From: Abditibacteriota bacterium
GTDB lineage: Bacteria; Armatimonadota; UBA5829
Direction: 5' to 3'
Assembly (NCBI GenBank): GCA_017445025.1
Contig: JAFSVJ010000009.1
Span: forward strand, 1,536-65,535
DNA: 64,000 bases
A program made the position numbers and the translations under genes. Position 1 is the first letter of the stretch. Every line of letters starts with the position of its first letter. Positions 14,119 through 35,811 of the stretch are shown here, piece by piece. A model generated the notes under the pieces. It made no database searches, was not told the DNA's origin, and was given only the letters and a program-made list of their open reading frames with translations.

Positions 14119-14140
14119 AAGCTCGGGAAACCGAGCTTTT
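14119..14140 (+). terminator. Rho-independent terminator aagctcgg-gaaa-ccgagctt+tttt; left copy of a 22-bp perfect direct repeat (candidate attL-side island boundary)
   Basis: An 8-bp stem with a GNRA loop, 3 bp after the porin stop. The identical 22-mer recurs at 34824-34845. Confidence 0.6.
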
Positions 14141-14220
14141 ACTATTGATTTAGAGTCTTTTTCTGTATTTAAACTTACCCTTAATTATTTGTCATAAACT
14201 ACAAATAAACTACAACTTTT

Positions 14221-15248
14221 TTATATAAATTGCAATTTATCTATTGCTGCAATTAAATCCATTTTTGGTAATCGAGTATATACATCAAGGGTTACATCTT
14301 TATACTTATGACCCATGATCTTTTTAATTGCTATAATATCTACTTTATTTTTAAGCATGTAATATGAAAAACTTTGCCTACAATTTTTAGGAACATGATC
14401 AAAAGAATGTTTTGAAAAGATTTGACGCAATTTTGATTCTGAGAAATTAAATACACCTTGTTTAACTTCTTCTGTTATTTTAAGAATATCTTTATGTATT
14501 GGAACTACTCTGTTAATTCCGGCTTCTGTTTTACTACCGGTTATTATATAACGTTCGTTTAAGTGAAATTCACTTATTTTTGATATTTCATTAAATCTTA
14601 TTCCCGTATATAAATAAAAAAGTTGTAATTTACAGGACAATTCATCTTTGTTTTTCCAAAGTTCTTGTATCTCACCAACTGTATAATTATTCTCCTCTTT
14701 TTTCGCTTGTGAAGATGAAGAAATTGCAATTGACGTTGCGTAATTTTTGGTAGCCCAGTCTTTATTTACAGCATATTCTGATAATTTCACCAACATTGTT
14801 CTAACTTTGCTTTGCATGGGGTATCCATATTTTAAAGTCTTAAATAAATTTACATAATCTTGGTGTTTAATATCACTCATAAGTTTGTTATGTAAAACAG
14901 CACAATCTTTAAAAGCTATTTTAGTATCCTTCTTCCAACTTTTGCTTTTATTTCCAAAAATGGTTATATAGTTAAACCATTGTTTGAATGCAACCTCAAA
15001 TGTAATTAGGACTAGATCATCAGGGTGTTCCTTTTTACAATTTTTTAAGGCTTCTTTTGCTTCTTCTTCTGTTTGGTAGTTTCCTAATGTTTTTTGAATT
15101 CTTTTAATTGTGCCATCTTCAGAAATATTATATGTTTGCGGTAATACTACTCTCCATTGCTTTTTTAATTCCGGACGGTTTATCTTGAAAATAGATTCTT
15201 CGCCTTTTTGTCTTCTTTTATATTCTATTTTTTTCTAAGTCTACCCAT
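14221..15248 (-). pseudogene. Tyrosine recombinase / phage-type integrase, interrupted by a frameshift in an A7 homopolymer (T7 on the plus strand at 15228-15234)
   Basis: The C-terminal catalytic region has TGIRFNEI (Arg) and IMGHKYKDVTLDVYTRL (His, Arg, Tyr). The open frame continues 107 codons upstream of the annotated Met with no ATG. The ATG at 15248 (MGRLRKK) is restored to frame by a +1 A in the A7 tract. Confidence 0.75.
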
Positions 15249-15638
15249 TCAAAATCCTCAAAATAATAATTTACTCCTATATATACCAATAAATTTACAT
15301 AAATTGACTTTTGTTAATATTTTATTATATTTTTCTTTAGATAATGGTATTTTAATTTGAAAAAACATTTTGTGGTATAATAAAGTTTTTTTGTATGCAG
15401 TTTAATCTTACTGTTTATGATTTTATTGTTTTCATAGGAAACCAAGGTAGAGAGATTTTTCTTTACCTTTTTTTATTTTTTAAGTTTTTTATGATTTTTA
15501 TTAAAATAAAATCAAAAAACGCTGATTTAATTGAAGATTTAGATATTTATATTAAGAATCTAAAAGAATAATTTAGTATAATTAAAGTTAAGTTTTCTTA
15601 TTTTTCAAAAAATAATATATATTTTTTGTTTTAAACAT

Positions 15639-15663
15639 AAAAAAAAGACCTGTTGAGAGGTCT
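15639..15663 (-). terminator. Rho-independent terminator downstream of the Panacea-pair operon
   Basis: Minus-strand stem agacct-ctcaac-aggtct followed by T7. Confidence 0.55.
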
Positions 15664-15701
15664 GCTTTAGTTATATTGTTTATATAATTTTAATATTCTA
15701 T

Positions 15702-15998
15702 TTAAGTCGTTATCATTAAGTTTGCCTTCATAGAGTTATAATCAGTAATCTCTGAAATATCAAATTCCATATAAGAATCAAGTTTGATAAAGGTTTCTTT
15801 TGGAAATGGTGGATAATACTGTTCTATAAGATAGTTACTTTCAAAATATAATCTGCTTTCCTTTCCTCTTAATGAAGAAGCATTTAATACTCCTATTTTT
15901 GAACCTGTCACTTTAACAATTAGATAAAATCTGTTATATTCCGGAAAAGTCCCATCCTTAAACCTAAGTTTTGTGAATATTGCCTGTCCTACTTCCAT
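15702..15998 (-). CDS. Small hypothetical protein; candidate toxin partner of the upstream Panacea-domain protein
   Basis: A 98-aa ORF whose start overlaps the stop of the Panacea gene by 1 nt (ATGA). No motif recognised. Confidence 0.45.
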   Translation of the reverse strand: MEVGQAIFTKLRFKDGTFPEYNRFYLIVKVTGSKIGVLNASSLRGKESRLYFESNYLIEQYYPPFPKETFIKLDSYMEFDISEITDYNSMKANLMITT

Positions 15999-16642
15999 TA
16001 GTATGCTTGCACTTCTCCGTCATCAAGGAATAAAGACATTGCCACTTCATCTGTAACTAAAGAAAGATCATATAGCTTGTCATAATCTTTGTCTGTTAAT
16101 GTGATTTCTTTTGGGTTGTAGTAAAATCTCACACCGTTAATGACTTCATAAACCTCTTCTTTATCCCTATTTTCGTAAGTAGAAATAACCTTATAGGTTT
16201 TATCTATTTCCTTTTTTATTAATTCTGTAGGGATAACAGCATCACCGGGATTGGTTTTGGATGATTTTTTATATGTGTCATTCCAAAAATTAAAGGTGTG
16301 ATTAAGTTCGGAAAGTTCCTTTGCAGAATAATGACTGAAAATTTCATTGGTAAGTTCTAATACTTTATCGGTTTCTTTAGAGAAGTTTGGCTTAAAGGCA
16401 AGACTGTCTTTCAAAAAAGTATTAAAATTATCTTTAAATTTGAGACGAACATCTCCTATTACACAACCTTGTTTAAAGGCAAATATATTGTCTTTGTATA
16501 AAGGAGAGTTGTATAGTGATAGGTTTATCAGATATGCAAACAGAAGCAGTTTCTGCAATTTCATATTACTGTCAAAGTTAGACTGTTGAATATCAAGATT
16601 GGTTTTAACAAAGAATTTAGCTAAATCGTAAACATTTTCCAT
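15998..16642 (-). CDS. Panacea-domain (DUF4065, SocA/GepA-like) putative antitoxin
   Basis: ...MKLQKLLLFAYLINLSL...AFKQGCVIGDV matches the KLQKLLYfa...AWeyGPV core of DUF4065. Start set at MENVYD (16642), which has a strong AAGGAGG RBS, rather than the ORF-track start at 16666. Confidence 0.55.
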   Translation of the reverse strand: MENVYDLAKFFVKTNLDIQQSNFDSNMKLQKLLLFAYLINLSLYNSPLYKDNIFAFKQGCVIGDVRLKFKDNFNTFLKDSLAFKPNFSKETDKVLELTNEIFSHYSAKELSELNHTFNFWNDTYKKSSKTNPGDAVIPTELIKKEIDKTYKVISTYENRDKEEVYEVINGVRFYYNPKEITLTDKDYDKLYDLSLVTDEVAMSLFLDDGEVQAY

Positions 16643-17012
16643 AATAAACCTCCTTTTACTAACCATACTATTATACTATATTTTATTTATTTTGTCAAAT
16701 ATTAAACCAGCAATAATATATACTTATATTTTGAACCCAAAGTTCCCAAAGTAAGAATTAATATGTGTTTTTTCTGATTTTTGAGATTTAGGGTCAAACT
16801 GTCAAAATTAATGAACAATTTTTAAAAACTATAAAAAAACTGTTTTTTTAGTGGATTTTTGTAGTAAAAATATAGTATAATATATTGAGAGATATTTAAA
16901 ACAGCTTTCTTTTACGCCTATTATTATTAATTTGAAAAAACACTTAAAATATTATATAATAATTATGTGTATCTAATTATAAATAATAGTATAATTTAGT
17001 TATAAAGTAAAA

Positions 17013-18887
17013 ATGACAGACGAGAAGCCTTTTGAGTTAAAATTGAATAATGACAAATATGTGACAATAGATGAACTAACAAAAATAGATTTAGCCGGAA
17101 CTAAGCCTATTGATTTTGTTATAGGTAATAATCCACCGGTTTCTGTTAAGTTTTGGCGTTTATTATTAAGTAAAACCGTAGATGAACTCATAAAACTATA
17201 TCCACATAAAGATATATTGCACTTTTCCTCTGCCAATACAAGAATGCTATTATTTTCTTATAACAAAGAGGATTTACACAGAGGTGAACTATTATCTAAT
17301 GGTTTGTTTTTGGAAACCTGTTTTAGCTCTAATAAAGTAGTTGAATTAATCAAAGCTTTTTTTGATTTCTTCGGGTATAAAGGTGAGTATTTATTAAATT
17401 ACAGACGGGAGAGAACTCCTTCTATACAAAGAAGAAATCAAAAATTAAATATTGTTGAAACAAGTAATGAACAAAATTTTAATAAAGAAAATATAAATAA
17501 TTCATTTGAATTATATGATAAAGAATTAATAGATATAGCTAATGTTATATTAGAAGAAAAGTTTTCTAATGCTTTTAGATTAAATTCAAATATTGCTAAA
17601 AATAAGTTTAGGAGGGCTTATTTTGATTTATTGGGTAAAGAGTTAATAGAAGAGTTTAATATAGATGATTTAATTAAGACTTTAGGAGTTGTTTTTGAAG
17701 ACAAAGTATATATAATATCATCAAAAGCAAAAGATATTTTAAGTGAATTAATTAATGAAGCAATAATAAATAATAATAATATAATTTATTATAAAGATTT
17801 TTATGATAAGAATAGTTCAATTCTTTCTTCTTTAAACATTTTCAATTATGAAATATTAAAAAAAGTAATTCAGTCATATTTTGAAAATCTATTTATTGAT
17901 ACTCATTTTTTTAAACCATTGGAAGATAATAATTTAGTTAATGATTTAGTTGAATGCTTTAAAGGGAAAGACATGTTGTCTATATATGAAATAAAGAATA
18001 AACTATTATATACTGATATTAATCACATTAAAAGAATGTTACAATTAGATAAGAATTTTGTATTTGCCAAAAGATATAATTATATGTATGTAGAAAACTT
18101 ATCTATTTCTACAGATGATGTTGAAGAAAGTAAGAAAATAATAGAAAAATCCTTTACTGACAAAGGAACAGCCAGTTTATCCGATATAGTTGTTAATAAT
18201 AGTATAAATTTAAACTATAATGCAACTGAAAATGCTTTACGAGAGGCAATATTCATTAAATGTTTATCTAATATGTGTGACAGAAACAGATCCATATTAT
18301 ATCCCAAGGGAAAAGATAAAATATCCGGTGCTTTATTAATGGAGGAATATTGTTTAAGTCATAATAAAGTCACTGTAGAAGAATTAGAAGAATATGAAAA
18401 CAAAATGACTGGTCATACTTATTTTTGGTTGATAAAAGCTATGAATAATATGATAAGAGTGGATCAAAAAACATTTGTTAGTTTTGATTTAATTGAATTC
18501 GATATTGAAAAAACTAATGAAGCTATTGGAAGATTTATATATGATAAGATAGTTCCCTTTAAGAAAATAGATAGTTTTATTGGGTTTCCTGAAGTGGAAG
18601 GATATATTTGGAATAAATATTTATTAGCTTCTTTTTGTTTACATGTAAGTAATAAATATAATTCTTGGCATAAATTTGCTAAGAATGATATTTTAGGTGG
18701 AATATATCCTAATACAATGGAGATAGATAGTTATAATGACTTTTTATATTATGTGGTATTAGAAAACAATATACCATTAACTAATGAATCTATTAATCTT
18801 TTTTTAAAAGATAATGGTTATATAAAGAAAAACATAAATACAGATTGGATAATATCTAAAATTAACGAATATAAGGAAGTAAATTAG
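17013..18887 (+). CDS. Uncharacterised 624-aa protein, first gene of the defence operon; translationally coupled to the downstream BrxP-like gene
   Basis: No recognisable motif and very N/K/I-rich. Its TAG stop overlaps the GTG start of the next gene (tagtg at 18885-18889). Confidence 0.5.
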   Translation: MTDEKPFELKLNNDKYVTIDELTKIDLAGTKPIDFVIGNNPPVSVKFWRLLLSKTVDELIKLYPHKDILHFSSANTRMLLFSYNKEDLHRGELLSNGLFLETCFSSNKVVELIKAFFDFFGYKGEYLLNYRRERTPSIQRRNQKLNIVETSNEQNFNKENINNSFELYDKELIDIANVILEEKFSNAFRLNSNIAKNKFRRAYFDLLGKELIEEFNIDDLIKTLGVVFEDKVYIISSKAKDILSELINEAIINNNNIIYYKDFYDKNSSILSSLNIFNYEILKKVIQSYFENLFIDTHFFKPLEDNNLVNDLVECFKGKDMLSIYEIKNKLLYTDINHIKRMLQLDKNFVFAKRYNYMYVENLSISTDDVEESKKIIEKSFTDKGTASLSDIVVNNSINLNYNATENALREAIFIKCLSNMCDRNRSILYPKGKDKISGALLMEEYCLSHNKVTVEELEEYENKMTGHTYFWLIKAMNNMIRVDQKTFVSFDLIEFDIEKTNEAIGRFIYDKIVPFKKIDSFIGFPEVEGYIWNKYLLASFCLHVSNKYNSWHKFAKNDILGGIYPNTMEIDSYNDFLYYVVLENNIPLTNESINLFLKDNGYIKKNINTDWIISKINEYKEVN

Positions 18888-21238
18888 TGGCACGGTATAT
18901 ATATGATTCTGAAACAGGTGGTATTCTGCTTCAGTATTTTGATGGAATAACATCTAACGAACCAAGACCTGTATATGCAACAGAGTTAAATATATTGGGA
19001 GTTGATGAATATTGGGATTATGAAAATCAAGATGATATCCCTTATATGTGGGCTGAGGCTAATCACTATTATTATAAAGGTATAAAAATATTTGACACTA
19101 AAGGTGGTAACCTTTATGAAAAGCCCAAAATTGAAATAATATATCAAAAAACTGAAAAAGAGAAGTTAACAGAAAATCCTGTTTTACCTTTTCATACTAA
19201 ATTAGATAAAATAAAAATCAAAGAAATGTGTGAGAAGAATAAGGAAGAATTAAATATATTAGAGCAATTAACTTGTAAAAAAATATATAATGAGTATTGC
19301 AAATATAAAGATAAACTTGATTGTTTTCATGTAGCTTTTAGTGGTGGTAAAGATAGTATTGTATTATTGGAACTTGTTAAAAAAGCTCTTCCTAAAAGCA
19401 GTTTTATTGTTTTATTTGGTGATACTCAAATGGAATTTCCGGATACTTATAAGATTATAGATATAGTAGAAGAGGGATGTAAAAAAGAGGGCATTGAATT
19501 TTATAGGGCCAAATCTCATCTAAAACCGGAAGAGAGTTGGAGATTATTTGGGCCTCCTTCAAGAGCATTAAGGTGGTGTTGTTCAGTTCATAAATCTGCT
19601 CCTCAGACTTTAAAATTAAGAGAAATATTAGGTAAAAAAGATTATATTGGAATGGATTTTGTAGGTGTTAGAGCTTTTGAAAGTTCAACCAGGGCTACCT
19701 ATGAAGAAGAGAATTTTGGAAAAAAACAAAAAGGCCAATATTCTTTTAATGCAATACTAAATTGGACTTCCGCCGATGTGTGGTTGTATATATATTCTAA
19801 TAATTTACCTATAAATGAAGCTTATAAAAAAGGCAATTCTCGTGCAGGATGTTTGTTTTGCCCAATGGGTGGTGGAAAAGGAGATTTTTTTCAGTATTAT
19901 TCATATTCTAAAGAAATGAATCCGTTAATATCAATAGTAAAAGACTTGTATATAAATGATACTGATAGTCAAGAAAAAATAAATTCTTATGTTTTTTCTG
20001 GTGGATGGAATGCTAGAAAAAATGGTAGGGATTTAACTATTTCTAAAAATAATTATAAAGAAGAAAAAATAGGACAAGACTTAATTATAACAATAAAGAA
20101 TCCTAGATCTGATTGGAGAGAATGGATTAAAATCTTAAGCAATTATAACTTAAATTATGATATTGTTAGTAATGATAATACTTTAAAAATAATTATTAAT
20201 GAAAATTCATTAGATAAAAATTTAGTTAAATATAGTAATAATTCTAAAGATTTATCTTTAAAAAGAGTATTTAAACAAGTATTTAAGAAAGCATCAAGTT
20301 GTGTGGGTTGTAAAGTATGTGAGGCTAATTGTCGTTATGGGCATATATCATTTAATGATGGTCTTAAAATTAATGGTTGTATACAATGTTATGAATGTCA
20401 AGATTTAGTAAATGGTTGTTTACTGTATAATTCTTTAATAATACCAACAGGAGATAAAAGAAAATTGAGTATTAATTCTTTTGCTAATCACGCACCTAAG
20501 CCAGAATGGATAAAAGATTTTGTCCAAAATTATAAAAATAATGTTGATTTTTGGTCTAATAATACATTAGGTCCTCAACAAATACCTAGATTTAAAAAGT
20601 TTGTTAAAAGTTGTGGCTTTTTAGATAATTCAAATAAACCAACAAAATTATTAAACTTATTATCAAATAAAAGATATAATTCAATTGATATTTGGGGTAT
20701 TGCTTATGCGAATTTTGCTTATAATACGCAAAGTCGATGGTATATAGAAAATATGGAAATAGATACCATTTACACTCGTGATAAAATCTCAGATATGCTT
20801 GTTGAAGAAGGATTAAGTAGAGATGATTCTACTTCAGTTATTAATGCATTTAAACGTTTTTGTGATATACCTTTTGGTGTTTATCTTAAATTTGGCAATG
20901 TTAAATTAAGTAATAAGACTATAAAGACATTGTCAAGAACAAAGACTTCTTTAGATAATAATAATAAGTTAGTTCTTTTATATTCTTTATATAAATATGC
21001 TGAAGAATGTGGTGATTATTATCAATTTAGCTTATCTACTTTAATGGATATGACTATAAAGTCTAAGGGTATAAGTCCTGTGAAAATATTTGGTTTTAGT
21101 CGTGATGAAATGGAAGTTATGCTTAGTGGATTGTCAAGCAAATACACAGATTTTATTGATTACACGCCTACTCATGGTTTAGAAAAGATAACCTTAATGG
21201 ATTATCATACTTCACAGGACGTTTTAGATTTATTTTAG
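18887..21238 (+). CDS. brxP: PAPS-reductase-domain protein, BrxP-like (DndC-like ATP pyrophosphatase fold plus Cys-rich C-terminal region)
   Basis: FHVAFSGGKDSIVLLEL is the PP-loop SGGKDS motif of the PAPS reductase/DndC family. Downstream cysteine clusters (CLFCPMGGGK; CVGCKVCEANC...CIQCYEC) follow. GTG start. Confidence 0.65.
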   Translation: MARYIYDSETGGILLQYFDGITSNEPRPVYATELNILGVDEYWDYENQDDIPYMWAEANHYYYKGIKIFDTKGGNLYEKPKIEIIYQKTEKEKLTENPVLPFHTKLDKIKIKEMCEKNKEELNILEQLTCKKIYNEYCKYKDKLDCFHVAFSGGKDSIVLLELVKKALPKSSFIVLFGDTQMEFPDTYKIIDIVEEGCKKEGIEFYRAKSHLKPEESWRLFGPPSRALRWCCSVHKSAPQTLKLREILGKKDYIGMDFVGVRAFESSTRATYEEENFGKKQKGQYSFNAILNWTSADVWLYIYSNNLPINEAYKKGNSRAGCLFCPMGGGKGDFFQYYSYSKEMNPLISIVKDLYINDTDSQEKINSYVFSGGWNARKNGRDLTISKNNYKEEKIGQDLIITIKNPRSDWREWIKILSNYNLNYDIVSNDNTLKIIINENSLDKNLVKYSNNSKDLSLKRVFKQVFKKASSCVGCKVCEANCRYGHISFNDGLKINGCIQCYECQDLVNGCLLYNSLIIPTGDKRKLSINSFANHAPKPEWIKDFVQNYKNNVDFWSNNTLGPQQIPRFKKFVKSCGFLDNSNKPTKLLNLLSNKRYNSIDIWGIAYANFAYNTQSRWYIENMEIDTIYTRDKISDMLVEEGLSRDDSTSVINAFKRFCDIPFGVYLKFGNVKLSNKTIKTLSRTKTSLDNNNKLVLLYSLYKYAEECGDYYQFSLSTLMDMTIKSKGISPVKIFGFSRDEMEVMLSGLSSKYTDFIDYTPTHGLEKITLMDYHTSQDVLDLF

Positions 21239-21249
21239 GAGTTTTCATA

Positions 21250-24200
21250 ATGAAGAAATATATAGATTACTTTGATATTGATCCTTCTTATTATCCGGAA
21301 ATTAATCCCGATTCAATTAAAGACCAAAAGTGGTATAGAACAACTCCACATAAAACTTTTATTGATGTTTTGAAACAAGTTGAAAGAACATTAAGTAGAG
21401 AAACAACAGAAGCTTGCAAAGGAATATGGATAGAAGGTTCATATGGAACAGGAAAGTCAAGAGTTATATGGACTATAGATAATATTTTGACTTGTTCTAA
21501 CGAGGAATTGAGTAAATACTTTAATAGCTATGCTCTTTTACAACAAGAAAAAGATTTACTTAATAAGATAAATGCTCTTAAATCCGGAAAAATACTAACT
21601 GTTTATAAATATAAATCCGGTGATATAGATAATATTAATAAGCTTATTATCAAAATATATGAAAGTGTTACCAAAGCATTAAAGAATAATAAATTTGATT
21701 ATATTGGAAAAGATACAATACGTGGAAAAATAGTTTCTTTTTTAGAAGAAGATGAAGAGAATAGGAACATCTTTGCTCAATTAATAAATAAACCAAAATA
21801 TAAGTCGTTAGGTAGTCTAAACGGAAAATCTGTTAGTGAGATTATCAAAATATTAAAAAATACTAATCAAAATGCTGAGGATTTAGTTAATGATATCATA
21901 AAGATATCAGATGATAATATTAATCTTTTTTCTTTAGATATGGATGATTTGAAATCATGGATATCAGAAGTGTTATCAGAGAATAAAGATAAAGGATTAA
22001 AAGCTATAGTATTATTATGGGATGAGTTTTCAGCATTTTTCAAGAAAAATAAAGATTCTCTTGATGTTTTTCAATCATTAGCTGAATTATCAAATAATGA
22101 TCCTTTCTATTTGATTATAGCAACTCATGAAAGTTCTTCTATAGTATCTCCGGAAGAAAAAGCTTCTTTTAAAGTTATTTCTGACAGATTTAATCATTTT
22201 AATATTAAAATGCCAAACTCAACTGCATTTGAATTGATTGCAGATGCAATGGATATAAAAAAAACTTCTAAATCTGAATATGAAATACTAACATCTGAAT
22301 TAAATGACAATATGAAAAAATCAAGGGAAGCTGTATGTAGGTTAAATGACAAGGATATAATTAGTGAAGAAACTATGAAAAGATTATGTCCTATTCATCC
22401 TATGACGGCTCTTTTATTAAAGCATATATCTACTTTTTTTGCGTCAAACCAAAGAAGTATGTTTAATTTTATTAAAGATAATGATAGTGATAAACTAAAA
22501 GCTTTTCAGTGGTTTATTAATAATTATTCTCCTGAAGATGGTCAACTTTTAGCCGTAGATTTTTTATGGGATTTCTTTTATAATTATGGAACAACTGATC
22601 ATAGTTCTTTTTCAGGCAGAGCAAATTTAGATATAATTATAGCTAATATTCTTGACACCTATCCAAGGGAAGAAAAAAAACTTAATAATGAGCAAAAAAG
22701 AGTCTTAAAAGCTGTTTTAATGATGCTTGCTATAAACAAAAGATTAAATAATAGTGTTGAATTATTAATTCCTAATGATAAAAATATTAAAATGGTATTT
22801 GAAGGAGATGATAATTTAGAAGATAAAGCTGTAAATATTGTTAAAAACTTTTTTGTAGATAATTTTAAAATACTTTATATTGATAAAGATGAAAATAATC
22901 AAGATGTTTATAAAGTTAATATGCCTGGTGAAGAACAAGAAATATTAAAGATAAAAGAAAGGTTACTTCAAGAAGTTAAAACAATTAATATATTAGAATC
23001 CGGTGAAAATTCTATACTTTCATCTATTTCTTTTCCTAATAAGATTAACATAAGATATAAATTTTATTATCTAACAGTTGATAATTTTACAAAAAAACTT
23101 AATAAAATTGCCGAAGAAGAAACTAAACTTTTTAAAGCTGTTTTATGTTTTGCCAGAAATAAAAATGAACAATTAATTATCAATAATAAAATAAAAGAAG
23201 CAATAAAAGATGATATATTTAAAGATATTGTTTTTGTAGATATGTCTAATAATTTATTAAGTGATGATAAATTTAACAATTTTATAGATTACAGTGCAAG
23301 AGAAGAATACTGGCGAGGAAAAGATGATAGTTTAGCTGATGAAAAGAAAAGAAACAAAGAAATGATTCTTGATGATTGGGCTAATGATATTAATAATGGA
23401 GAGTATAAAGTATCTAATGTTAAAAATGCATATGCTAAAGATTGTAATTCATTTGATAGTTTAAAAGAAGCATTAGTAGAAATAGTATTAAAGTATTATC
23501 CTTTGGTATTTGATAATTATAAAATTGCTGAACCTTTATTTAATTCTTCTGACTTTAATATTGGAATTTTGTGTGGGTTAGGAATATCTAATAAAAAAGG
23601 AGATAAATATTACAGCGTTTATCAAGAAAAAGATATTAGAATGATCTTAGGAAAACTTGTTGATGATGATAATTATTGGATTACAGATAAAAGCCATAAT
23701 ATATCTCAAATAAAGATAAAATTAGATGAATATATTCAAAATGAATTTGATAGAAATAATAAGGTTTCTATAGGTGATATATTTGATTTCTTAATGGGTC
23801 TTGGGTTTATATATAATAATTTATATGCATATTTGACCGGATTTTTATTAAAGGGTTATTCCTGCAGACCCTATCGTTATAGTATAGGTTTAGAAGGAGA
23901 AAATGGTGGTGAAATAGATCCTAATAAACTTGCTGAATTTGTTAGTGAATATATGAAATTTAAACAAACTGGTAAAAATGAACCAAAAATTAAATATATT
24001 CAAATAATGACAGATAATCAACGAGAATTTTTAAGTTTTATTAATTCTTCCTATGGTGTTGATAAAGATTTGTCTGTTGAACAAGCAGTAATTCACTTAA
24101 GAAATAAACTTTTGAGTATAGGTTATCCGTTATGGGTTTATAAAACAATTGATGAAAATGGATTAAGTGACTACATTGATAAGTTAAGTAATATAGTTAA

Positions 24201-25461: not shown

Positions 25462-25465
25462 TATT

Positions 25466-27619: not shown

Positions 27620-27629
27620 GGATTAAAGT

Positions 27630-29093
27630 ATGATAGATAAGTTAAGAAAATATTTTGATGAAATGGTAGTATATAAAGATTTAAAGAATAGTAATTTCTT
27701 TTCTGCTTTGAGTTTACCTTCATTTACTCGTGATTGGCTATTAAAGCGATTTGAAAACAAAGAAGGTCAATTTGATATTGATAATTTAGCTGCATTTGTT
27801 AAGAAGAATATCCCAAAAAAAAATGATTGGACTGCAATTGAAAGTAGAATAGTTAAAGATTATGAAAGAGTAAAAATATTAGCTAAAATTTCTATTGATA
27901 TAGATATTAAAACAGGAGAAGTTTCTTTTTCTTTACCTGAATTTGGTTTGTCTTCTAAAAATACTATTATTGAAGATGATGTATATGATGAATTTAAAGA
28001 AGATTTAGTTAGCGGACATGAAGTTTGGGGTATGCTTGAATTAGGATATAGACAACCAAATGATACTGTTAAGCCTAAAATTCCTGGAAAAATAAAATTA
28101 ATTAAATTTAAAAACTTTTGTCCCTACAATATAAATGTAGATTATTATAAAAATGTTAGGTCTAAATTTACTATTGATGAATGGATAAATGTTCTTTTAG
28201 GAGCTATTGATTATAATGCAGATGGTTACAAAGATAATGAAGAAAAACTATCTATGCTTACAAGACTCTTACCATTCTGTGAAAAAAGATTAAATCTTAT
28301 AGAATTAGCTCCTAAAGGAACAGGTAAATCATATGTCTATGGTAGAATAAGTAGATTTGGTTGGCTTTCCAGTGGTGGTGTTATGAGCAGAGCTAAAATG
28401 TTCTATGACATTTCAAAAAGAGCAGAAGGTTTAGTTAGTGGAAATGATTTCATTACTCTTGATGAAGTGCAAACAATTTCTTTCACAGATATAGATGAAA
28501 TGAGAGCCGCATTAAAAGGTTATTTAGAGCAAGGTGTTTTTACTGTAGGTAATTATGAAGGATCAGCATCTTCGGGTGTCATTTTATGTGGTAATATATC
28601 CAAGAAAATAATGGATCAAGATGGAACAACTGATATGTTTAAAGAACTTCCAGATGTTTTCCACGAATCTGCTTTAATAGAACGTTTTCACGGGATAATT
28701 AGAGGTTGGAATATACCAAGAATGAATGATGATTTAAAAATATGTGGTTGGGCATTAAATTCTGAATACTTTTGTTCTATATTACACGAATTAAGAGAAG
28801 ATACAACATATCGAGTTGTTGTAGATAAGTTAATAGAGGTTCCTGAAGGGGCAGATACAAGAGATACTGAAGCTATTAAAAGAATTGTAACTGCTTACTT
28901 AAAACTTTTATTTCCGAATGTTAGACAGCCCGAAGATATTTCTCCTAGAGAATTTAAACAGTATTGTTTAAGACGTGCTAGAAATATGAGAGCCTTGATT
29001 AAATCTCAATTAGGAATTATTGATGAAGAATATAGAGGAAAAGATATTCCTAATTTAGTTGTTAATCCTCAATACTTAAATGATGATTTATAA
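27630..29093 (+). CDS. brxL: AAA-type ATPase, BrxL-like (Lon-related ATPase region; no protease Ser-Lys motif seen)
   Basis: 487 aa. Walker A LELAPKGTGKSYVY and Walker B FITLDEVQ. Position after the PglZ-like gene matches type 1 and type 4 BREX order. Confidence 0.45.
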   Translation: MIDKLRKYFDEMVVYKDLKNSNFFSALSLPSFTRDWLLKRFENKEGQFDIDNLAAFVKKNIPKKNDWTAIESRIVKDYERVKILAKISIDIDIKTGEVSFSLPEFGLSSKNTIIEDDVYDEFKEDLVSGHEVWGMLELGYRQPNDTVKPKIPGKIKLIKFKNFCPYNINVDYYKNVRSKFTIDEWINVLLGAIDYNADGYKDNEEKLSMLTRLLPFCEKRLNLIELAPKGTGKSYVYGRISRFGWLSSGGVMSRAKMFYDISKRAEGLVSGNDFITLDEVQTISFTDIDEMRAALKGYLEQGVFTVGNYEGSASSGVILCGNISKKIMDQDGTTDMFKELPDVFHESALIERFHGIIRGWNIPRMNDDLKICGWALNSEYFCSILHELREDTTYRVVVDKLIEVPEGADTRDTEAIKRIVTAYLKLLFPNVRQPEDISPREFKQYCLRRARNMRALIKSQLGIIDEEYRGKDIPNLVVNPQYLNDDL

Positions 29094-29106
29094 ATGGTAA
29101 TTAATA

Positions 29107-29307
29107 ATGAAAAAAGTTTACAATTGTTGTGCTTGTGGAAAAAGAAATTTAGAAAAAGATGAAATAGCGGTTTGTAAGAAAATGTTAGGTAGGAAAATAG
29201 AAAAGTTTTTCTGTTATGACTGTTTAGCAAATTATTTGGATTGTTCGGTTCAAGATATTTTAGATAAAATTGAAGAATTTAAAGCTCAAGGATGTAAACT
29301 GTTTTAA
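29107..29307 (+). CDS. Small zinc-ribbon protein
   Basis: 66 aa with CCACGK...C...CYDC Cys pairs. Lies between the BrxL-like and OLD-like genes in the same operon. Confidence 0.45.
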   Translation: MKKVYNCCACGKRNLEKDEIAVCKKMLGRKIEKFFCYDCLANYLDCSVQDILDKIEEFKAQGCKLF

Positions 29308-29322
29308 ATAACAACTAATAAT

Positions 29323-30945
29323 ATGATAGAAAAGATAAGAATTATTAATTTTAAAAAATTTAGAGACATTACTATAAATTTAAATGAAAATATTAACATT
29401 ATTGTTGGAAATAATGAAGAAGGTAAATCTACTATTTTGGAAGCTTTAAATTTAGCTCTTACAGGATTTTATCGAGGAAAGCCAATTAATAATGAATTAT
29501 CACAGTATTTGTTTAATAATGATGTTGTTATTGAATATCTTAAGTCATTACAAACAGAAAAAATAACAGATCTGCCATGTATTAAGATAGAAATATATTT
29601 TTCTACTGGAACAGCCCCTATTTTTGAAGGAAATAAAAATATAGATAATGAAGATAATGAAGGATTTACTTTTCATATAGGTTTTAATGAAGATTACAGA
29701 GAAGAATATGATTTTTATATTAGAAATAACCAAATAGACAATTTACCTATTGAATATTATGAAGTTTGGTGGGAAACTTTTGCTCGTGACAAAATCACTA
29801 CAAAAAAACTTCCTATTAAATCTTTTATGATTGATTCTTCAAATTATAAATATACAAATAGTTCCGATATTTATATATCAAGAATAGTTAATAACATTTT
29901 AGATAAAAAGGATATTCTATCTATTGCTCAATCACATAGACGTTTAAAATATAAATTCAGTGAAGAAGATTCCATAAAGAATATAAATTCTAAAATATCC
30001 AAAGATTTATTCATAAATGATGATATAATTAACTTAGGTGTAGAAGTAGATACTAAGAACGCTTGGCAAAATAGTTTGGTTGTTCAAGTTAATGATATTC
30101 CTTTTGAAAATATAGGAAAAGGAACGCAATGTATATTTAAGACAAAAATGTCATTACTAAAAAACAAAGATAATCAAAATTCTGTAATTTTAATTGAAGA
30201 GCCTGAAAATCATTTATCATATTCTAAATTAAATGAATTTATAAAAATTATTAAAGATATTAACATTGGCAAACAAATCATAATGACAACTCATAGTAGT
30301 TTTGTAGCCAATAAATTAGGATTAAACAATTTAATATTAATAAATGACAAAAATGTATTAAGAATAAGTAACGTTAAATCATTTGATTTCTTTAAGAAAA
30401 TTCCAGGATATGATACATTAAGATTTTTACTATCAAAGAGAGTAATTTTAGTAGAAGGGCCATCAGATGAATTAGTCGTTCAAAAAGCTTATATGATGCA
30501 TAATAATGGTAGAATACCTATTATGGATGGAATAGATGTTATTTCCGTAGGAACTGCTTTTTTAAGATATTTAGAATTAGCTATCAGACTAAATATTAAA
30601 GTGAGTGTTATGATTGATAATGACGGAAATATTAAAGCAATAGAAGAAAAATATAGTGATTATAAAGATAATAAGAATATAACTATATGCTATGATGAAG
30701 AAGTTAATGATAAAAAAGAATCATTAGGTGAAAGGTTTAATTATAATACATTAGAGCCTAATTTGTTGAAGGTTAATAGTATAGAAGTTTTTAATAAAAT
30801 ATTAAATATGTCCTTTATTACAGAAAAAGACTTATTACAATATATGAAGAATAATAAAACTGATGTTGCTTTAAAAATATTTGAAACAAAAGAAAACATT
30901 AATTTTCCTAATTATGTATTAAAGGCTATTAATAATGAAGAGTAA
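29323..30945 (+). CDS. OLD-family ATP-dependent nuclease (N-terminal ABC-type ATPase plus C-terminal Toprim), GajA-like
   Basis: Walker A IIVGNNEEGKSTILEAL. Walker B-like VILIEEPENHL. C-terminal Toprim ILVEGPSDELVVQ. Confidence 0.65.
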   Translation: MIEKIRIINFKKFRDITINLNENINIIVGNNEEGKSTILEALNLALTGFYRGKPINNELSQYLFNNDVVIEYLKSLQTEKITDLPCIKIEIYFSTGTAPIFEGNKNIDNEDNEGFTFHIGFNEDYREEYDFYIRNNQIDNLPIEYYEVWWETFARDKITTKKLPIKSFMIDSSNYKYTNSSDIYISRIVNNILDKKDILSIAQSHRRLKYKFSEEDSIKNINSKISKDLFINDDIINLGVEVDTKNAWQNSLVVQVNDIPFENIGKGTQCIFKTKMSLLKNKDNQNSVILIEEPENHLSYSKLNEFIKIIKDINIGKQIIMTTHSSFVANKLGLNNLILINDKNVLRISNVKSFDFFKKIPGYDTLRFLLSKRVILVEGPSDELVVQKAYMMHNNGRIPIMDGIDVISVGTAFLRYLELAIRLNIKVSVMIDNDGNIKAIEEKYSDYKDNKNITICYDEEVNDKKESLGERFNYNTLEPNLLKVNSIEVFNKILNMSFITEKDLLQYMKNNKTDVALKIFETKENINFPNYVLKAINNEE

Positions 30946-32032
30946 GCTAATAATGGCATGTGCCGGTTCCGGAAAAACTACTTATTTGATAGAACGAGCT
31001 TTAAAAATAAAGGACAAAAGCATATTAATTACTACATATACTAATTCTAATGAACAAGAGATAAAGAATAAATTTATAGATAGAATAGGTTATATCCCAA
31101 AAAATATAACTATCCAAACTTGGTTTTCATTCTTATTACAGCATTGGGTTAGACCTTATCAAAGTGTAATATATGATTGTGACATCAAAGGAATAGATAT
31201 TTCAGATAAAAAATCTACTAAATATGTAACAGAAAACAATGCTAAAGAATATTATTTTAATAGTAAAAATGAAATATATCGAGATAATCTCTCTAAATTT
31301 GCTTTTAAAGTAAATGAAAAAACTGAAGGAAAACTTATAGCCAGATTAGAAAAAATATATCAATATATTTTTATTGATGAAATTCAAGATTTGGCAGGAT
31401 ATGATTTAGATTTAATAAATGAAATAGTTAATTCTAGTATTTGGTTAATAATGGTTGGTGATAGAAGACAAACTGTTTATATTACACATTATGAAAAACG
31501 CAATGAAAAATATAGAGGAAAAATTGATGAATATGTGATAGATAAACTAACAAATAAAGTTTACATGGATGTAAAATCCTTATCTAATAGTTATAGATGT
31601 AATCAAAAAATATGCGATTTTGCTAATGATGTTTTTAAAGATTTGCAACCTATGAAATCGTCAAACAAACAAAAAACAGAACATGATGGTGTTTTTTTAG
31701 TTAGACCTTGTGATATAAATGATTATTTGATTAAGTTTAGTCCTGTTCAGCTACGATATAGCAAATCTATAAAGGTAAATATAAATTATAAAGCTTATAA
31801 TTTTGGTGAATCAAAAGGTTTAACTTTTGATAGAGTATTAATATATCTAACTAAAAATCAAACTGATTGGTTAAAAAATCATACTATAAAGTTAAAAGAG
31901 CCGGAAAAATTATATGTTGCTATTACAAGAGCTAAATATAGTGTTGCAATTGTATTTGATGAATTAGATAAATATCAACCAAAACATACAGAAGTGTATC
32001 CTTATAAAAGAGATTTATTTACACTTGATTAG
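30935..32032 (+). CDS. Compact UvrD/PcrA-like SF1 helicase, GajB-like
   Basis: Motif I ACAGSGKTT, Ia TYTNSNEQEI, II FIDEIQD, III MVGDRRQT, V GESKGLTFDRV, VI VAITRAKYSV. Overlaps the OLD-like gene by 11 nt. Confidence 0.6.
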   Translation: MKSKLIMACAGSGKTTYLIERALKIKDKSILITTYTNSNEQEIKNKFIDRIGYIPKNITIQTWFSFLLQHWVRPYQSVIYDCDIKGIDISDKKSTKYVTENNAKEYYFNSKNEIYRDNLSKFAFKVNEKTEGKLIARLEKIYQYIFIDEIQDLAGYDLDLINEIVNSSIWLIMVGDRRQTVYITHYEKRNEKYRGKIDEYVIDKLTNKVYMDVKSLSNSYRCNQKICDFANDVFKDLQPMKSSNKQKTEHDGVFLVRPCDINDYLIKFSPVQLRYSKSIKVNINYKAYNFGESKGLTFDRVLIYLTKNQTDWLKNHTIKLKEPEKLYVAITRAKYSVAIVFDELDKYQPKHTEVYPYKRDLFTLD

Positions 32033-32192
32033 TCTTTTACTAATTATTAATTTATAAAAGTGTATTTTTAATTGAGTACATTATGGCAAAAACGAATGAA
32101 TAAATATGTATATTTTTAAACCTTTAAATTAAATGGGTTAAAGATTTTATTCCAAAATGTATAATAATAATATTAAATGGAGAAATTTTAAG

Positions 32193-34730
32193 ATGAATAA
32201 GAAAGGTTTTAATTATGTTGAGTTATTGATAATACTTGCGATTATAGTAGTTGTATCTGCTGTTGTATATCCCGTTATTGGTGCAAATAGTAGGTTTGTT
32301 GAAGATGAAAGTGTAAGAGAAACTTGTATTGATAATGTTGCTAAAATAACTAAAGCACTTTTGATGTATATTGAAGATTGGGATAATACAACTCCGAGAT
32401 GTTACGGTCCCGGATCAGGTGCAACAATAGCTACCTTCGGTGCTAAATTAAACGACGGTCGTCCTAATGGTATAGGTTGTTTGTATGACTATGTGGCCGG
32501 TGAAGGTGCTTTTGATAGCTTTATAAATACAGGGAAAAACCCTGAAGTATTAAAATGTCCTAATGATGAAGTATGGAGTAATACAAATTGGTGTTGTTCT
32601 TACTTCTGTGGACCAAGTCCATATTGGTTTTGGGAAGGAGGAACAGACAATTGGGGTAAAGAAGGTGAATCCATATCAGAATATGAAAATCTTTCCACTT
32701 CTGCTGCTATAATTGAATCAAGACAATTTTTCTATTGGAGAAGTTGTGAAAAAAAAGGGCATAATTATACTACCCCTTGTGGATTTTTAGACGGACATGT
32801 AGAAGTATTTCCTGTTTTAACTCCGAAGCAGTTATATAGAGATCAAAATCAAGATTATGACTGGGAAATCACTGCCGGATGGGGCCCATGTGATGCTCAA
32901 GGTAATATTAGTTGGGGTGAAACAAGTGAATATTGGAATCCACAAATATATTATTATTTTTATTGGTCACATGATAATGATATTCAATGGGTACTATTAA
33001 ATGAAGAAAATATTACAATAGATCAAGGAAAAGCTTACACTGATCTATCTGTTTCTATTTTACCTGAAACTGCTTCTGATATTGATATTGAATTTACATG
33101 GTCTTCGAGTGATGAATCTGTTGCTACAGTAGATCAAAATGGTGTAATAAATGCTATAGGTGAGGGCAAAGCTATTATAACTGTTAAGGCTAAATATACA
33201 GATTATTATGGTAATTATAATAGAGAATTAACTGATGAATGTGAAGTGACAGTTATTCCACCGGAACCTACATCTATTACAATAGATAAAACAAGAATAA
33301 TGATTGTGGGTCAAACTTCTTCCATTACTGCTAATATTTTACCTGAAAATGCAAATCAAAGTGTTGTTTGGTCAACAAAAGATAAAAATATTGCTATTAT
33401 TTCAAACGGTAAAATTACGGCTGTAGGAGTGGGATCGGTTTATATCATAGCTTATACTTATGATAAAAAATTATATGCTAAATGCAAAGTAACGGTTCTT
33501 CCGGAACCCGAGTCTATAGTTCTTGATAAAACAAAAGAAACTGTTTGTATAGGAAAGACAATAGACTTAAACGCAACTGTTCTTCCTAAAAATACACTTC
33601 AAGATGTTGTATGGATATCTAAAGATAAATCTATTGCTACTGTATCAAACGGTAAAGTTAAAGGTGTAAAAGAAGGAATTGTTAAGATAAATGCATATAC
33701 TTATGATAAAAAGTTATATGCTTCCTGTAAGGTAACAGTTGTTCCTTATCCTGCGTCTATTACTCTTGACAAAAAAACAGAAACAGTATGTATTGGTAAA
33801 ACTGTAGACTTAAAGGCTACAATATTGCCTGCTAATGCGCCTCAAGATGTTGTATGGATATCTAAAGATAAATCTATTGCTACTGTATCAAACGGTAAAG
33901 TTAAAGGTGTAAAAGAAGGAACTGTTAAGATAAATGCATACACTTATGATAAAAAGTTATATGCTTCCAGTAAGGTGACAGTTGTTTCTTATCCTGAGTC
34001 TATTACTCTTGATAAAACTTCATCTTCTGTAGTTGTCGGAAAGAAAATAACATTGAAAGCAACTGTTTTACCTATCAATGCTCTTCAAACAGTTGTTTGG
34101 GTAAGTAAAGACAAATCTATTGCTACAGTATCAAACGGACAAGTTAAAGGTGTAAGTCCGGGGACTACTTATGTAAATGCATATATTTATGATAAAAAAC
34201 TTTATGCTAAATGTAAGGTGACAGTATATCCGGCACCTACGGAAGTGGTCTTGAATAAAACCTCTATGACCGTTTATGTTGGAAAGACAGGAACATTAAC
34301 AGCTTCTGTTTTGCCTGAGGGTGCTGTTCAAAGTGTCACCTTTGAATCCTCAGATACAAGCATAGCAACAGTTAATTCAAATGGTCTTGTTAAAGGATTA
34401 AAAGTAGGATCTACTACTGTCATAGTCAGAACAAAAGACAAATCCAAATACAAAAAGTGTAAAATAACCGTTAAGAATAAACCCGTCACGGGAGTATCAT
34501 TAAATAAGACATCTTTAACTTTGGCAGTGGGAAAGTCAACAACTCTGACTGCAACCATAAAACCTTCTGACGCAACCATTAAGACTGTCACTTGGACATC
34601 TTCAAACACCAAGGTTGCAAAGGTATCTTCTACCGGAAAGGTGACAGCTGTGGCCAAAGGCACCGCTACCATATCTGTCATAACAACTGACAGTTCTAAA
34701 AAAGCCACCTGTAAGGTGACAGTAAAGTAG
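32193..34730 (+). CDS. Prepilin-type N-terminal domain protein with about 8 tandem Big_2 (bacterial Ig-like) domains
   Basis: N-terminus MNKKGFNYVELLIILAIIVVV is a pilin-like cleavage/methylation motif. Repeated ...SSDESVATVDQNGVINAIGEGKAIITVKA...KVTV units. Start chosen at 32193 (RBS ggag). Confidence 0.7.
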   Translation: MNKKGFNYVELLIILAIIVVVSAVVYPVIGANSRFVEDESVRETCIDNVAKITKALLMYIEDWDNTTPRCYGPGSGATIATFGAKLNDGRPNGIGCLYDYVAGEGAFDSFINTGKNPEVLKCPNDEVWSNTNWCCSYFCGPSPYWFWEGGTDNWGKEGESISEYENLSTSAAIIESRQFFYWRSCEKKGHNYTTPCGFLDGHVEVFPVLTPKQLYRDQNQDYDWEITAGWGPCDAQGNISWGETSEYWNPQIYYYFYWSHDNDIQWVLLNEENITIDQGKAYTDLSVSILPETASDIDIEFTWSSSDESVATVDQNGVINAIGEGKAIITVKAKYTDYYGNYNRELTDECEVTVIPPEPTSITIDKTRIMIVGQTSSITANILPENANQSVVWSTKDKNIAIISNGKITAVGVGSVYIIAYTYDKKLYAKCKVTVLPEPESIVLDKTKETVCIGKTIDLNATVLPKNTLQDVVWISKDKSIATVSNGKVKGVKEGIVKINAYTYDKKLYASCKVTVVPYPASITLDKKTETVCIGKTVDLKATILPANAPQDVVWISKDKSIATVSNGKVKGVKEGTVKINAYTYDKKLYASSKVTVVSYPESITLDKTSSSVVVGKKITLKATVLPINALQTVVWVSKDKSIATVSNGQVKGVSPGTTYVNAYIYDKKLYAKCKVTVYPAPTEVVLNKTSMTVYVGKTGTLTASVLPEGAVQSVTFESSDTSIATVNSNGLVKGLKVGSTTVIVRTKDKSKYKKCKITVKNKPVTGVSLNKTSLTLAVGKSTTLTATIKPSDATIKTVTWTSSNTKVAKVSSTGKVTAVAKGTATISVITTDSSKKATCKVTVK
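33480..34230 (+). repeat. Intragenic tandem repeats, period of about 242 bp (Big_2 domain units), including 75-bp perfectly identical stretches
   Basis: gatgttgtatggatatctaaagataaatctattgctactgtatcaaacggtaaagttaaaggtgtaaaagaagga occurs identically at 33603-33677 and 33845-33919. Confidence 0.8.
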
Positions 34731-34744
34731 TGATTTATACAACA

Positions 34745-34790
34745 AAAAACCAAGCAAAATTGCTTAATTTTACTTGGTTTTATTCGTAAT
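34745..34790 (+). terminator. Rho-independent terminator (A-tract, stem aaccaag...cttggtt, T-tract)
   Basis: A 7-bp stem enclosing an internal caaaattg palindrome, then ttttatt. Confidence 0.5.
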
Positions 34791-34823
34791 AAACTACAAA
34801 TAGAATACAAATTGTGTTTAAAA

Positions 34824-34845
34824 AAGCTCGGGAAACCGAGCTTTT
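34824..34845 (+). terminator. Second copy of the aagctcgggaaaccgagctttt hairpin terminator (candidate attR-side island boundary)
   Basis: A 22/22 identity with 14119-14140 in the same orientation. Confidence 0.6.
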
Positions 34846-34873
34846 TTATTAACTTTATATTTTTCTGTAAATA

Positions 34874-34882
34874 TGGTATAAT
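34874..34882 (+). promoter_or_regulatory. Extended -10 promoter (TGgTATAAT) for nadA
   Basis: tggtataat lies 36 nt upstream of the nadA ATG. RBS ggggtaaaatt. Confidence 0.45.
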
Positions 34883-34917
34883 ATAAGTGTAAAAAAATAT
34901 TTTTTTGGGGTAAAATT

Positions 34918-35811
34918 ATGACAGAAAGAATCAAACAACTTGCCAAAGAGAAAAATGCTGTTATACTGGCTCACAACTACACTCCTCCGGAAATCCAAGA
35001 AATAGCCGATTATACAGGCGACAGTTTGGAGCTGTCCCGTATCGCCGCAAAAACCGAAGCAAACACCATTGTATTCTGTGGAGTTCACTTTATGGCTGAA
35101 ACCGCCAAAATTCTCTCCCCGGAAAAGACTGTCCTTATCCCGGATGAGAAAGCAGGCTGTCCCATGGCAGACACTATTACCCTTGAAAATTTACGTGATT
35201 TTAAAGCCAGATACCCGGGCCTTCCGGTAGTGGCTTATGTAAATACAACTGCAGAAATTAAATCCGAAGTTGATATATGTTGCACCTCAGGAAACGCCCT
35301 TAACTTGGTTTGTAAATTACCTTATGATAAAATGTTATTCGTTCCGGATAAAAACTTAGGTGCATATATACAAAAACTGGTTCCGGAAAAAGAACTTATC
35401 TGTTGGCAAGGGGGTTGTCCCGTTCACCAAAGAATCACAGATATAGATATTTCCAAATGCAAAAGAGAACACCCGGAAGCCTTGGTAGTGGCTCACCCGG
35501 AATGTGCTAAAGAAGTTTTGAATCTTGCAGATATAATTGCAAGCACCAGCGGTATGATTAGAGAGATTACAGCAAGTAAGGCAAAAGAATTTATCATCTG
35601 CACCGAAAGAGGTCTTATTCATCAATTCCAAAAAGCAAATCCGGATAAAATTTTCTATAACCCCTCTCCCATAAACATTTGTCCTAACATGAAAAAGAAT
35701 ACCATGGAAAAACTTCTCAACTGTCTTGAAACGGGAGAAGGTGAAATTATCCTCTCTGAAGATATTATCAAAAAAGCCAAAACTGCCATTGAACGAATGA
35801 TTGAGTATTAG
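34918..35811 (+). CDS. nadA: Quinolinate synthase A
   Basis: VILAHNYTPPEIQEIADYTGDSLELSR and ...CTSGNAL... are the NadA Fe-S enzyme signatures. 297 aa. Confidence 0.92.
   Translation: MTERIKQLAKEKNAVILAHNYTPPEIQEIADYTGDSLELSRIAAKTEANTIVFCGVHFMAETAKILSPEKTVLIPDEKAGCPMADTITLENLRDFKARYPGLPVVAYVNTTAEIKSEVDICCTSGNALNLVCKLPYDKMLFVPDKNLGAYIQKLVPEKELICWQGGCPVHQRITDIDISKCKREHPEALVVAHPECAKEVLNLADIIASTSGMIREITASKAKEFIICTERGLIHQFQKANPDKIFYNPSPINICPNMKKNTMEKLLNCLETGEGEIILSEDIIKKAKTAIERMIEY

Follow-up and report, generated by a model that had tools for sequence, protein, structure and literature searches.

Genomic islands and prophages that target tRNA or tmRNA genes insert at the 3' end of the structured RNA gene and restore that end, and class C group II introns, IS200/IS605 elements and some other insertion sequences (IS) home to terminator or repetitive extragenic palindromic (REP) hairpins. 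Intergenic attachment (att) sites with dyad symmetry are unsurprising. With regard to anti-phage cargo, bacteriophage exclusion (BREX) of type 4 is rare; the canonical system consists of four genes. Abditibacteriota, the lineage concerned here, have to our knowledge almost no cultured members, and in the literature we found neither a description of mobile elements from this group nor a clear precedent for a terminator hairpin serving as the chromosomal attachment site (attB). In the present study we analysed a stretch of 64,000 nucleotides from an Abditibacteriota bacterium (contig JAFSVJ010000009.1; henceforth "the window"). Its segment 14141-34845, 20.7 kb in length, is very probably an integrated genomic island, that is, a circular element inserted at the terminator of a porin-like gene by its own tyrosine integrase.

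The repeated hairpin and the two island junctions

The 22-mer AAGCTCGGGAAACCGAGCTTTT is present in exactly two plus-strand copies within the window, at 14119-14140 and 34824-34845, as claimed in an earlier note on this DNA. Further matches are absent from the window even if three mismatches are allowed, and none of 100 dinucleotide-preserving shuffles contains the sequence. If one mismatch is tolerated, the identity extends to 26-27 nt by four A's added on the left side (repeat family D14). Any other long exact repeats of the window belong either to the Big_2 domain repeats of a surface protein gene or to an unrelated GC-rich interspersed family, both of which are described below.

The left copy, which we designate the attL core, forms a terminator-like hairpin with the stem AAGCTCGG/CCGAGCTT and the loop GAAA (-17.8 kcal/mol, z = -4.8). 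It begins 3 nt downstream of the stop codon (14113-14115) of a plus-strand gene which encodes a porin-like outer-membrane protein of 425 aa (12838-14115), represents the left chromosomal flank and shows a host-like GC content at third codon positions (GC3) of 0.387; homologs of this protein give faint or weak Porin_4 matches. The right copy, the attR core, folds into an equally terminator-like hairpin (-20.0 kcal/mol, z = -6.7) and is followed, about 30 nt further on, by the extended -10 element TGGTATAAT of the nadA promoter, which together with nadA (34854-35811, plus strand) marks the right chromosomal flank. Both placements, immediately after the porin-like gene and just upstream of the nadA promoter, had been correctly described before. 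At attR the T-tract TTTTTTATT is full and presumably is that of the original porin terminator, while the junction shortens the T-tract at attL to TTTT-AC. As read from the sequence, a terminator hairpin is retained at both island junctions. The nearest tRNA gene, tRNA-Ser(GCT) at 36967-37058, which is the sole match of an Rfam scan, lies 2.1 kb outside the right repeat, in agreement with the earlier note, and is untouched.

Misassembly of the contig was considered and ruled out. One independent metagenome assembly (L001) spans the porin-hairpin-int junction and four others (L002-L005) span the Big_2-hairpin-nadA junction, all with 99.9-100% identity. The arrangement is therefore real and not the artefact of a single assembly. 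We would like to mention that L001 breaks inside int at 14499 and that L002 and L003 both begin exactly at 31998, at the end of gajB; among the contigs covering the region a complete integrase open reading frame (ORF) is carried by the 78.9-kb contig of the metagenome-assembled genome only. These breaks may reflect poor coverage of the cargo with its GC content of 23-25%, or strain variation between int and the Big_2 gene.

The DNA between the two hairpins differs in composition from its surroundings. GC content amounts to 0.23-0.29 over 14-32 kb and to 0.31-0.35 over 32-35 kb, compared with 0.34-0.41 in the flanks. GC3 divides the genes of the island from those of the flanks more clearly than overall GC does, with 0.13-0.29 for every island gene, Big_2 included, versus 0.27-0.39 for the flank genes. 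The previous description of the interior as more AT-rich than the flanks thus holds for both measures. The higher overall GC content at the right end and the contig starts at 31998 had hinted at a native Big_2 gene and an island end near 32.0 kb. This possibility was ruled out: the GC3 of the Big_2 gene is island-like (0.197), the 11-mer repeats described below and the right hairpin lie downstream of it, and the porin-nadA gap of the relative L045 (see below) is empty, with no counterpart of the gene.

To what extent the hairpin occurs elsewhere was determined by a scan of one genome per species from 185,579 species, in which any base was allowed at the first loop position. The hairpin is found in 31 of these genomes, always as a single copy and in entirely unrelated taxa (Clostridia, Tenacibaculum, Rodentibacter and others); no Abditibacteriota genome of the scan contains it, and no genome harbours two copies. 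JGI metagenomes yield 26 single-copy matches and IMG/VR yields three, which have nothing else in common with the window, and none of them is a donor phage carrying the hairpin beside a related integrase. Occurrence of the 22-mer at many unrelated terminators, named in the earlier note as the observation that would turn it into a common genome-wide terminator motif, is thus rejected in view of the single copies in unrelated contexts which the genome, metagenome and viral scans return. The hairpin is a generic terminator design which evolved convergently, consisting of A-tract, GC stem, GNRA loop and T-tract, and not a dispersed repeat. With a rate of about 1.7e-4 per genome, the expected frequency of another copy arising independently inside the same 64 kb is roughly 1e-6 to 1e-5. 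An independent copy 20 kb away being very unlikely at this rate, the two copies must share one origin.

It might still be argued that the hairpins are independent generic terminators, alike by chance or convergence, and that the AT-rich block arrived by another route, e.g. by homologous recombination of its flanks, or is a variable native region. Independent origins of the same 22-mer as a terminator are indeed documented by the 31 species of the scan, which are unrelated, and by phage and metagenome contigs that are likewise unrelated, and other terminators of the window, e.g. that at 12731-12750, share the style of GC stem and GAAA loop. We nevertheless regard this explanation as highly improbable in view of the expected frequency of a second copy and the absence of any genome with two. 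In addition, it leaves unexplained that the two copies bracket the low-GC3 block exactly, that an integrase gene ends 81 nt inside the left copy, that 11-mer repeats lie inside both copies and that the right copy follows a gene which has a terminator of its own.

Presumed empty site, putative arm-type repeats and proposed mode of integration

Two relatives provide information on the locus prior to integration. In contig L007 (metagenome assembly GCA_024712465.1) the stop codon of a porin gene whose product is 74% identical is followed by one near-identical hairpin, AAGCTCGGGCAACCGAGCTTTTTTTT, with the loop GCAA compared to GAAA in the window. Since L007 has a single copy at this position, the hairpin, judging from the sequence, belongs to the porin gene as its native terminator and is older than the island. 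In L045, which encodes a NadA of 80% identity, a full-length porin ortholog (35% identity, E=1e-90) is located directly upstream of nadA. The spacer of 183 nt between both genes contains a single terminator hairpin, the stem sequence of which differs from that in the window, and a conserved promoter block, TGGTATAATATAA(A/G)TGTAA, which is spaced from the hairpin as at attR. The order in L045 accordingly reads porin, one hairpin, TGGTATAATATAARTGTAA promoter, nadA, nadC, SLT; its gene order agrees with that of the window for the gene at 231-782 and for porin, nadA, nadC and SLT, and a counterpart to the segment 14.1-34.8 kb is missing from the contig. It looks like the predicted empty-site architecture. 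With respect to the empty site which the earlier note had suggested looking for, the order of porin, one hairpin and nadA was thus found, albeit in another species and not in the same one.

A second direct repeat, which had been overlooked so far, is present on the island side of both hairpins (14185-14229 and 34780-34824, 80% identity over 45 nt). It is built of 11-mers with the sequence ATAAACTACAA. The left segment between core and integrase stop codon, the P' arm (14141-14220, plus strand), contains two exact 11-mers in tandem at 14194-14215, starting at 14194 and 14205. In the P arm (34780-34823, plus strand), which abuts the right core, one exact 11-mer at 34789-34799 is followed by a degenerate copy, ATAGAATACAA, at 34800. 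There are three exact 11-mers in the window, all in the same orientation and all within 75 nt of a hairpin copy. On the basis of their sequence and position we consider them putative arm-type sites of the integrase. In the phage relatives L041, L042 and L043, too, the int stop codon is immediately followed by short tandem repeats. In L042 (11000-11181; integrase 31% identical) tandem copies of TTGCTAGTAG follow the int stop codon, and after about 45 nt there is a long terminator-like hairpin which overlaps the stop codon of a convergent ORF, with DNA of higher GC content beyond. This junction layout is that of attL in the window; one end of the L042 element is seen.

As the 11-mer block itself is directly repeated, with 14 bp at its core being exact (ATAAACTACAAATA), and adjoins the integrase gene, crossover might have taken place there (14185-14229 / 34780-34824) rather than in the hairpin, in which case the island would be about 110 bp shorter and both hairpins would have been chromosomal beforehand. 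Prior to insertion the site would then have had to contain the 22-bp hairpin twice, in identical form and at a distance of about 100 bp, whereas L007 and L045 have one hairpin each, and the distance from the hairpin to the -10 element in L045 equals that at attR. Moreover, the blocks are only 80% identical compared with 100% for the hairpins, and their placement, abutting the core at one junction but 44 nt away from it at the other, as well as the int-adjacent repeats in the phage relatives, suit arm-type sites better. A crossover at the 11-mers is therefore improbable.

We favour integration at the hairpin. According to this model a circular element would have entered the terminator hairpin between the porin gene and the nadA promoter by means of the phage-type tyrosine integrase which it encodes. 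The attachment site of the element (attP) would have comprised, in this order, the 11-mers of the P arm, the 22-bp hairpin core, 44 nt, the tandem 11-mers of the P' arm and the 3' end of int, while the porin terminator would have served as attB. Crossover inside the shared 22 bp would then yield attL (porin, core, P') and attR (P, core, nadA side). The 22 bp being common to attP and attB, one core copy is thus expected at each junction. Inverted core-type sites would be provided by the two halves of the stem, AAAAGCTC and GAGCTTTT, with the central GGGAAACC as the overlap of strand exchange, and the 11-mers would be bound by the N-terminal domain of the integrase, a region that shows a weak Arm-DNA-bind_4 match (see below). 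As a consequence the porin gene would keep a terminator at attL, and the hairpin at attR would insulate the nadA promoter from the island. The predicted junction sequences read TTCATTCTAAAAGAAGCTCGGGAAACCGAGCTTTTTTATTAACTTTATA for attB and ACAAATTGTGTTTAAAAAAGCTCGGGAAACCGAGCTTTTACTATTGATTTAGAG for attP. Integration into the terminator region of the porin gene with formation of attL and attR, the central proposal of the earlier note, is hence upheld by the native hairpin in L007, the empty-site order in L045 and the GC3 of the island.

A far-reaching extension of this model would be that the phage lineage of integrases of about 335 aa habitually uses the terminator hairpins of convergent host genes as attB, with the stem halves as core-type sites, so that the terminator is regenerated at both junctions. 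The window and L042 fit this idea; in L041 no clear hairpin follows the int repeats. We regard it as doubtful. If true, it would be the protein-gene equivalent of targeting tRNA 3' ends.

The integrase gene (14221-15248, minus strand) ends 81 nt inside the left copy, close to the roughly 80 bp given before for a tyrosine recombinase. The gene is disrupted. From the ATG at 15248 the reading frame encodes MGRLRKK (seven codons) and, shifted by an A7 run at 15228-15234, runs into a TAG stop codon at 15225-15227. The stop-free frame of 336 codons which extends from 15231 to 14224 has no start codon of its own at that end and no in-frame ATG, GTG or TTG before codon 118. One extra A (A8) would fuse both frames to an integrase of about 343 aa. 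What is annotated as an ORF of 219 aa, previously taken for an intact recombinase gene, therefore corresponds to no more than the C-terminal two thirds of the gene, which is frameshifted and about 343 codons long. Its product is a tyrosine recombinase by family assignment: PF00589 scores 33.8 bits (gathering score 27.1), phrog_1 matches residues 5-333 with E=2e-27, and a profile search against the PDB returns XerC-like, Tn1549 Int, XerA and HP1 Int structures, although no solved structure matches the first 65 residues or so. Homologs measure 331-380 aa, the three nearest ones found on contigs covering 88-98% of the 336-aa open frame, and by sequence the protein is a member of a phage lineage whose proteins measure about 335 aa. 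IMG/VR contains at least 394 relatives. The three nearest homologs are located on phage-like contigs, of which one (L041) encodes a tape-measure protein and tail genes and another (L042) RecT, an SMC-like ATPase, a methylase and a helix-turn-helix repressor. In an alignment with five relatives the catalytic residues Arg212, Lys234, Arg285, the histidine of the GH motif and Tyr318 are conserved. In contrast, the histidine of the HxxR motif, present in all five relatives, is replaced by lysine in the island integrase (KNCR).

Because of the A7 frameshift, the exchange of the HxxR histidine for lysine and the lack of any recognisable gene for an excisionase or for replication, packaging or transfer, the island has probably lost its mobility. 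We infer that it is most likely fixed in place, or movable only by an integrase supplied from a helper. That the element is still mobile, the A7 run being slippery, phase-variable or an assembly error, full-length integrase being made and lysine functionally replacing the HxxR histidine, appears unlikely. Admittedly, no stop codon interrupts the 336-codon frame, intact relatives can be aligned with it from end to end, five of the six residues of the catalytic pocket are kept, the A7 run is covered by one assembly only and the attL and attR cores are still identical. Yet the sequence as given stops after seven codons and offers no alternative start codon in the first third of the frame, all five relatives retain the histidine, no excisionase-like gene is recognisable and neither an attB nor an attP junction was found in the collections searched.

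A number of observations weigh against integration of the island at the hairpin as depicted above. The empty-site relative L045 is distant, as indicated by a porin identity of 35%, and in L007 the porin gene is followed by other DNA instead of nadA. Two further relatives, L127 (NadA 81% identical) and L046 (73%), differ in the genes preceding nadA, so that adjacency of porin and nadA is not universal; L044 (NadA 91% identical) is uninformative on the upstream gene since its contig starts 30 nt before nadA. No empty site of the same species came to light, exact-protein look-ups with porin and NadA giving occupied junctions only. The predicted attB 30-mer has no match in the JGI metagenomes, a collection which apparently does not contain this lineage, and neither attB nor the circular (attP) junction is present in the JGI metagenome and viral collections searched. 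The integrase gene is disrupted, and activity of its product cannot be assumed. The N-terminal region of the integrase matches Arm-DNA-bind_4 (PF14657), which also detects no more than two of six family members, with 17.3 bits (E=0.0036) and thus below the Pfam cut-off of 22.3. Finally, where in the 22 bp the strands are exchanged is a matter of pure inference.

Cargo genes and neighbouring sequences

Next to the integrase gene a two-gene cassette is located on the minus strand (15702-16666). It consists of a gene for a SocA/Panacea-domain protein of 222 aa (15998-16666; PF13274, 36.1 bits; NCBIfam SocA_antitoxin below cut-off) and an overlapping gene for a partner of 98 aa (15702-15998), and corresponds to the toxin-antitoxin-like pair which had been recognised before. 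The two proteins match phrog_1281 and phrog_13386, phage protein families without assigned function. Going by the domain assignment, they probably are a PanA-type antitoxin and an uncharacterised toxin, the 98-aa protein being the putative toxin.

The major part of the island is occupied by plus-strand defence genes. A complete BREX system of type 4 (18887-29093) comprises brxP (18887-21238), brxC/pglY (21250-25461), pglZ (25466-27619) and brxL (27630-29093), for which PADLOC reports scores of 754 (BrxP), 672 (BrxC), 378 (PglZ) and 728 bits (BrxL) with most or all of each model covered; the NCBIfam model BREX_PglZ_4 scores 394 bits at a cut-off of 140. The operon is headed by a gene for a protein of 624 aa (17013-18887, plus strand), the stop codon of which overlaps the brxP start. 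Pfam, PADLOC, NCBIfam and PHROGs yield no match for this protein, which may represent an accessory component of BREX-4 not described so far. An ORF of 66 aa (29107-29307, plus strand), likewise without a match in these four collections, separates BREX from a Gabija system (29323-32032, plus strand) made up of gajA, encoding an OLD-type ATPase-TOPRIM protein (29323-30945), and gajB, encoding a UvrD-like helicase (30935-32032), which overlap by 11 nt. PADLOC scores are 641 bits (E=4e-193) for GajA and 421 bits (E=1e-126) for GajB, both near full length, and Pfam matches are AAA_15, OLD-like_TOPRIM and UvrD. What had been summarised as one BREX/OLD defence operon does therefore contain defence genes which, however, belong to two systems by PADLOC and NCBIfam assignment. 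Since its cargo includes BREX type 4 and Gabija, as assigned by family, the element serves as a defence island.

The last cargo gene (32157-34730, plus strand) encodes a surface protein of 857 aa whose N-terminus, KKGFNYVELLIIL, is of the prepilin type and which has seven Big_2 domains; this substantiates its previous description as a prepilin-Ig surface protein. The gene contains four tandem repeats of 243 nt (33288-34316), each coding for one Big_2 domain; they are 62-68% identical to the reference copy, and two of them have an exact stretch of 80 nt in common. In L002 (160-2478) the call of this gene ends early, at 772 instead of 857 aa, while the DNA differs at two positions over 9.6 kb. 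Right after the stop codon there is a separate hairpin (34746-34781), called on the minus strand by the scan and followed on the plus strand by TTTTATT, which from its sequence and location is likely to be the gene's own terminator. The right copy of the 22-mer would accordingly be the second hairpin in a row.

Pfam, PHROGs and NCBIfam scans of all island ORFs of at least 60 aa identified no phage structural, packaging, lysis or replication genes, the PHROG matches of the Big_2 protein being Ig-domain matches only, and the same scans revealed no recognisable excisionase or transfer gene among the island proteins. Relaxase, coupling protein and type IV secretion system domains were not detected in the island proteins by Pfam scans.

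Outside the island the window contains GC-rich interspersed repeats of about 70-145 nt (e.g. GGTGGGTGGTCAGGAGTAAAATTTGCAAAACTG), which are 84-93% identical, intergenic and present in both orientations. Copies are located at 5016-5279, 36707-36850, 57078-57188 and 61545-61638 and, in addition, at 1834-1980 with 61258-61552. The DNA separating nadC from tRNA-Ser is occupied by one copy, for which reason an ORF of 91 aa at 36653-36928 is probably spurious. Similar GC-rich motifs fill a non-coding stretch of 900 nt after the porin gene in L007 (1560-2360). The family has no Rfam match, is unrelated to the 22-mer hairpin and may be an element of this lineage resembling miniature inverted-repeat transposable elements or REP sequences.

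On the left flank, the neighbour of the porin gene in L045 is orthologous (52% amino acid identity) to the gene at 231-782 of the window. Window positions 783-12837 (about 12 kb, including genes for a LacI-type regulator and an amidase) are absent from that position in L045. This segment upstream of the porin gene may, from the comparison of gene order, represent a second insertion or a rearrangement.

Comparison with known systems

The locus documents that BREX type 4 and Gabija, both of them anti-phage systems, were acquired horizontally in Abditibacteriota, and it provides exact island boundaries together with predicted attB and attP sequences. Besides, it is a clean case of a tyrosine-integrase element at the terminator of a protein gene, which is of some, albeit small, relevance to island-prediction tools anchored on tRNA genes. 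The general understanding of island function is not changed by it.

In its architecture the island resembles lambda-type (heterobivalent) elements, which comprise temperate phages and islands descending from them. Its int gene lies beside the att site with the 3' end facing the P' arm, the core is dyad-symmetric, short arm-type motifs are present on both sides of it, and an identical core forms part of attL and attR; moreover, its integrase is by phrog_1 and PF00589 a homolog of phage integrases. Unlike such elements, however, the island is devoid of phage genes for structural proteins, lysis, replication or a repressor, a Xis is not recognisable, its integrase gene is disrupted, its core coincides with an intrinsic terminator and the arm-binding domain is weakly detectable. 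As no structural genes were found, the island is not a prophage, and by the defining features tested it is neither an integrative and conjugative nor an integrative and mobilisable element.

With islands that target tRNA genes it has in common a dyad-symmetric target encoding an RNA stem-loop, a copy of which is carried by the element so that function, here termination, is kept. The target differs in that it is the terminator of a protein gene, the nearest tRNA gene, that for tRNA-Ser(GCT), being left alone. Elements homing to terminator or REP hairpins similarly insert at a hairpin of the intrinsic-terminator type with little damage to host genes; in contrast to the island, they do so by retrohoming or by single-strand HUH transposition, without the duplication of attL and attR by a tyrosine recombinase. 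The closest match in terms of cargo is found in integrase-associated BREX and Gabija defence islands, with which the present one shares a complete BREX type 4 system along with Gabija and a toxin-antitoxin-like pair beside the integrase. It departs from these in its host, a member of the Abditibacteriota, an uncultured gut or rumen lineage, and in the extra gene for a 624-aa protein at the head of the BREX-4 operon. The pairing of BREX-4 with Gabija in one cargo likewise counts among its less usual traits. Integrase-bounded defence islands are, in sum, a well-known kind of element, to which the present one belongs; its target site is less common.

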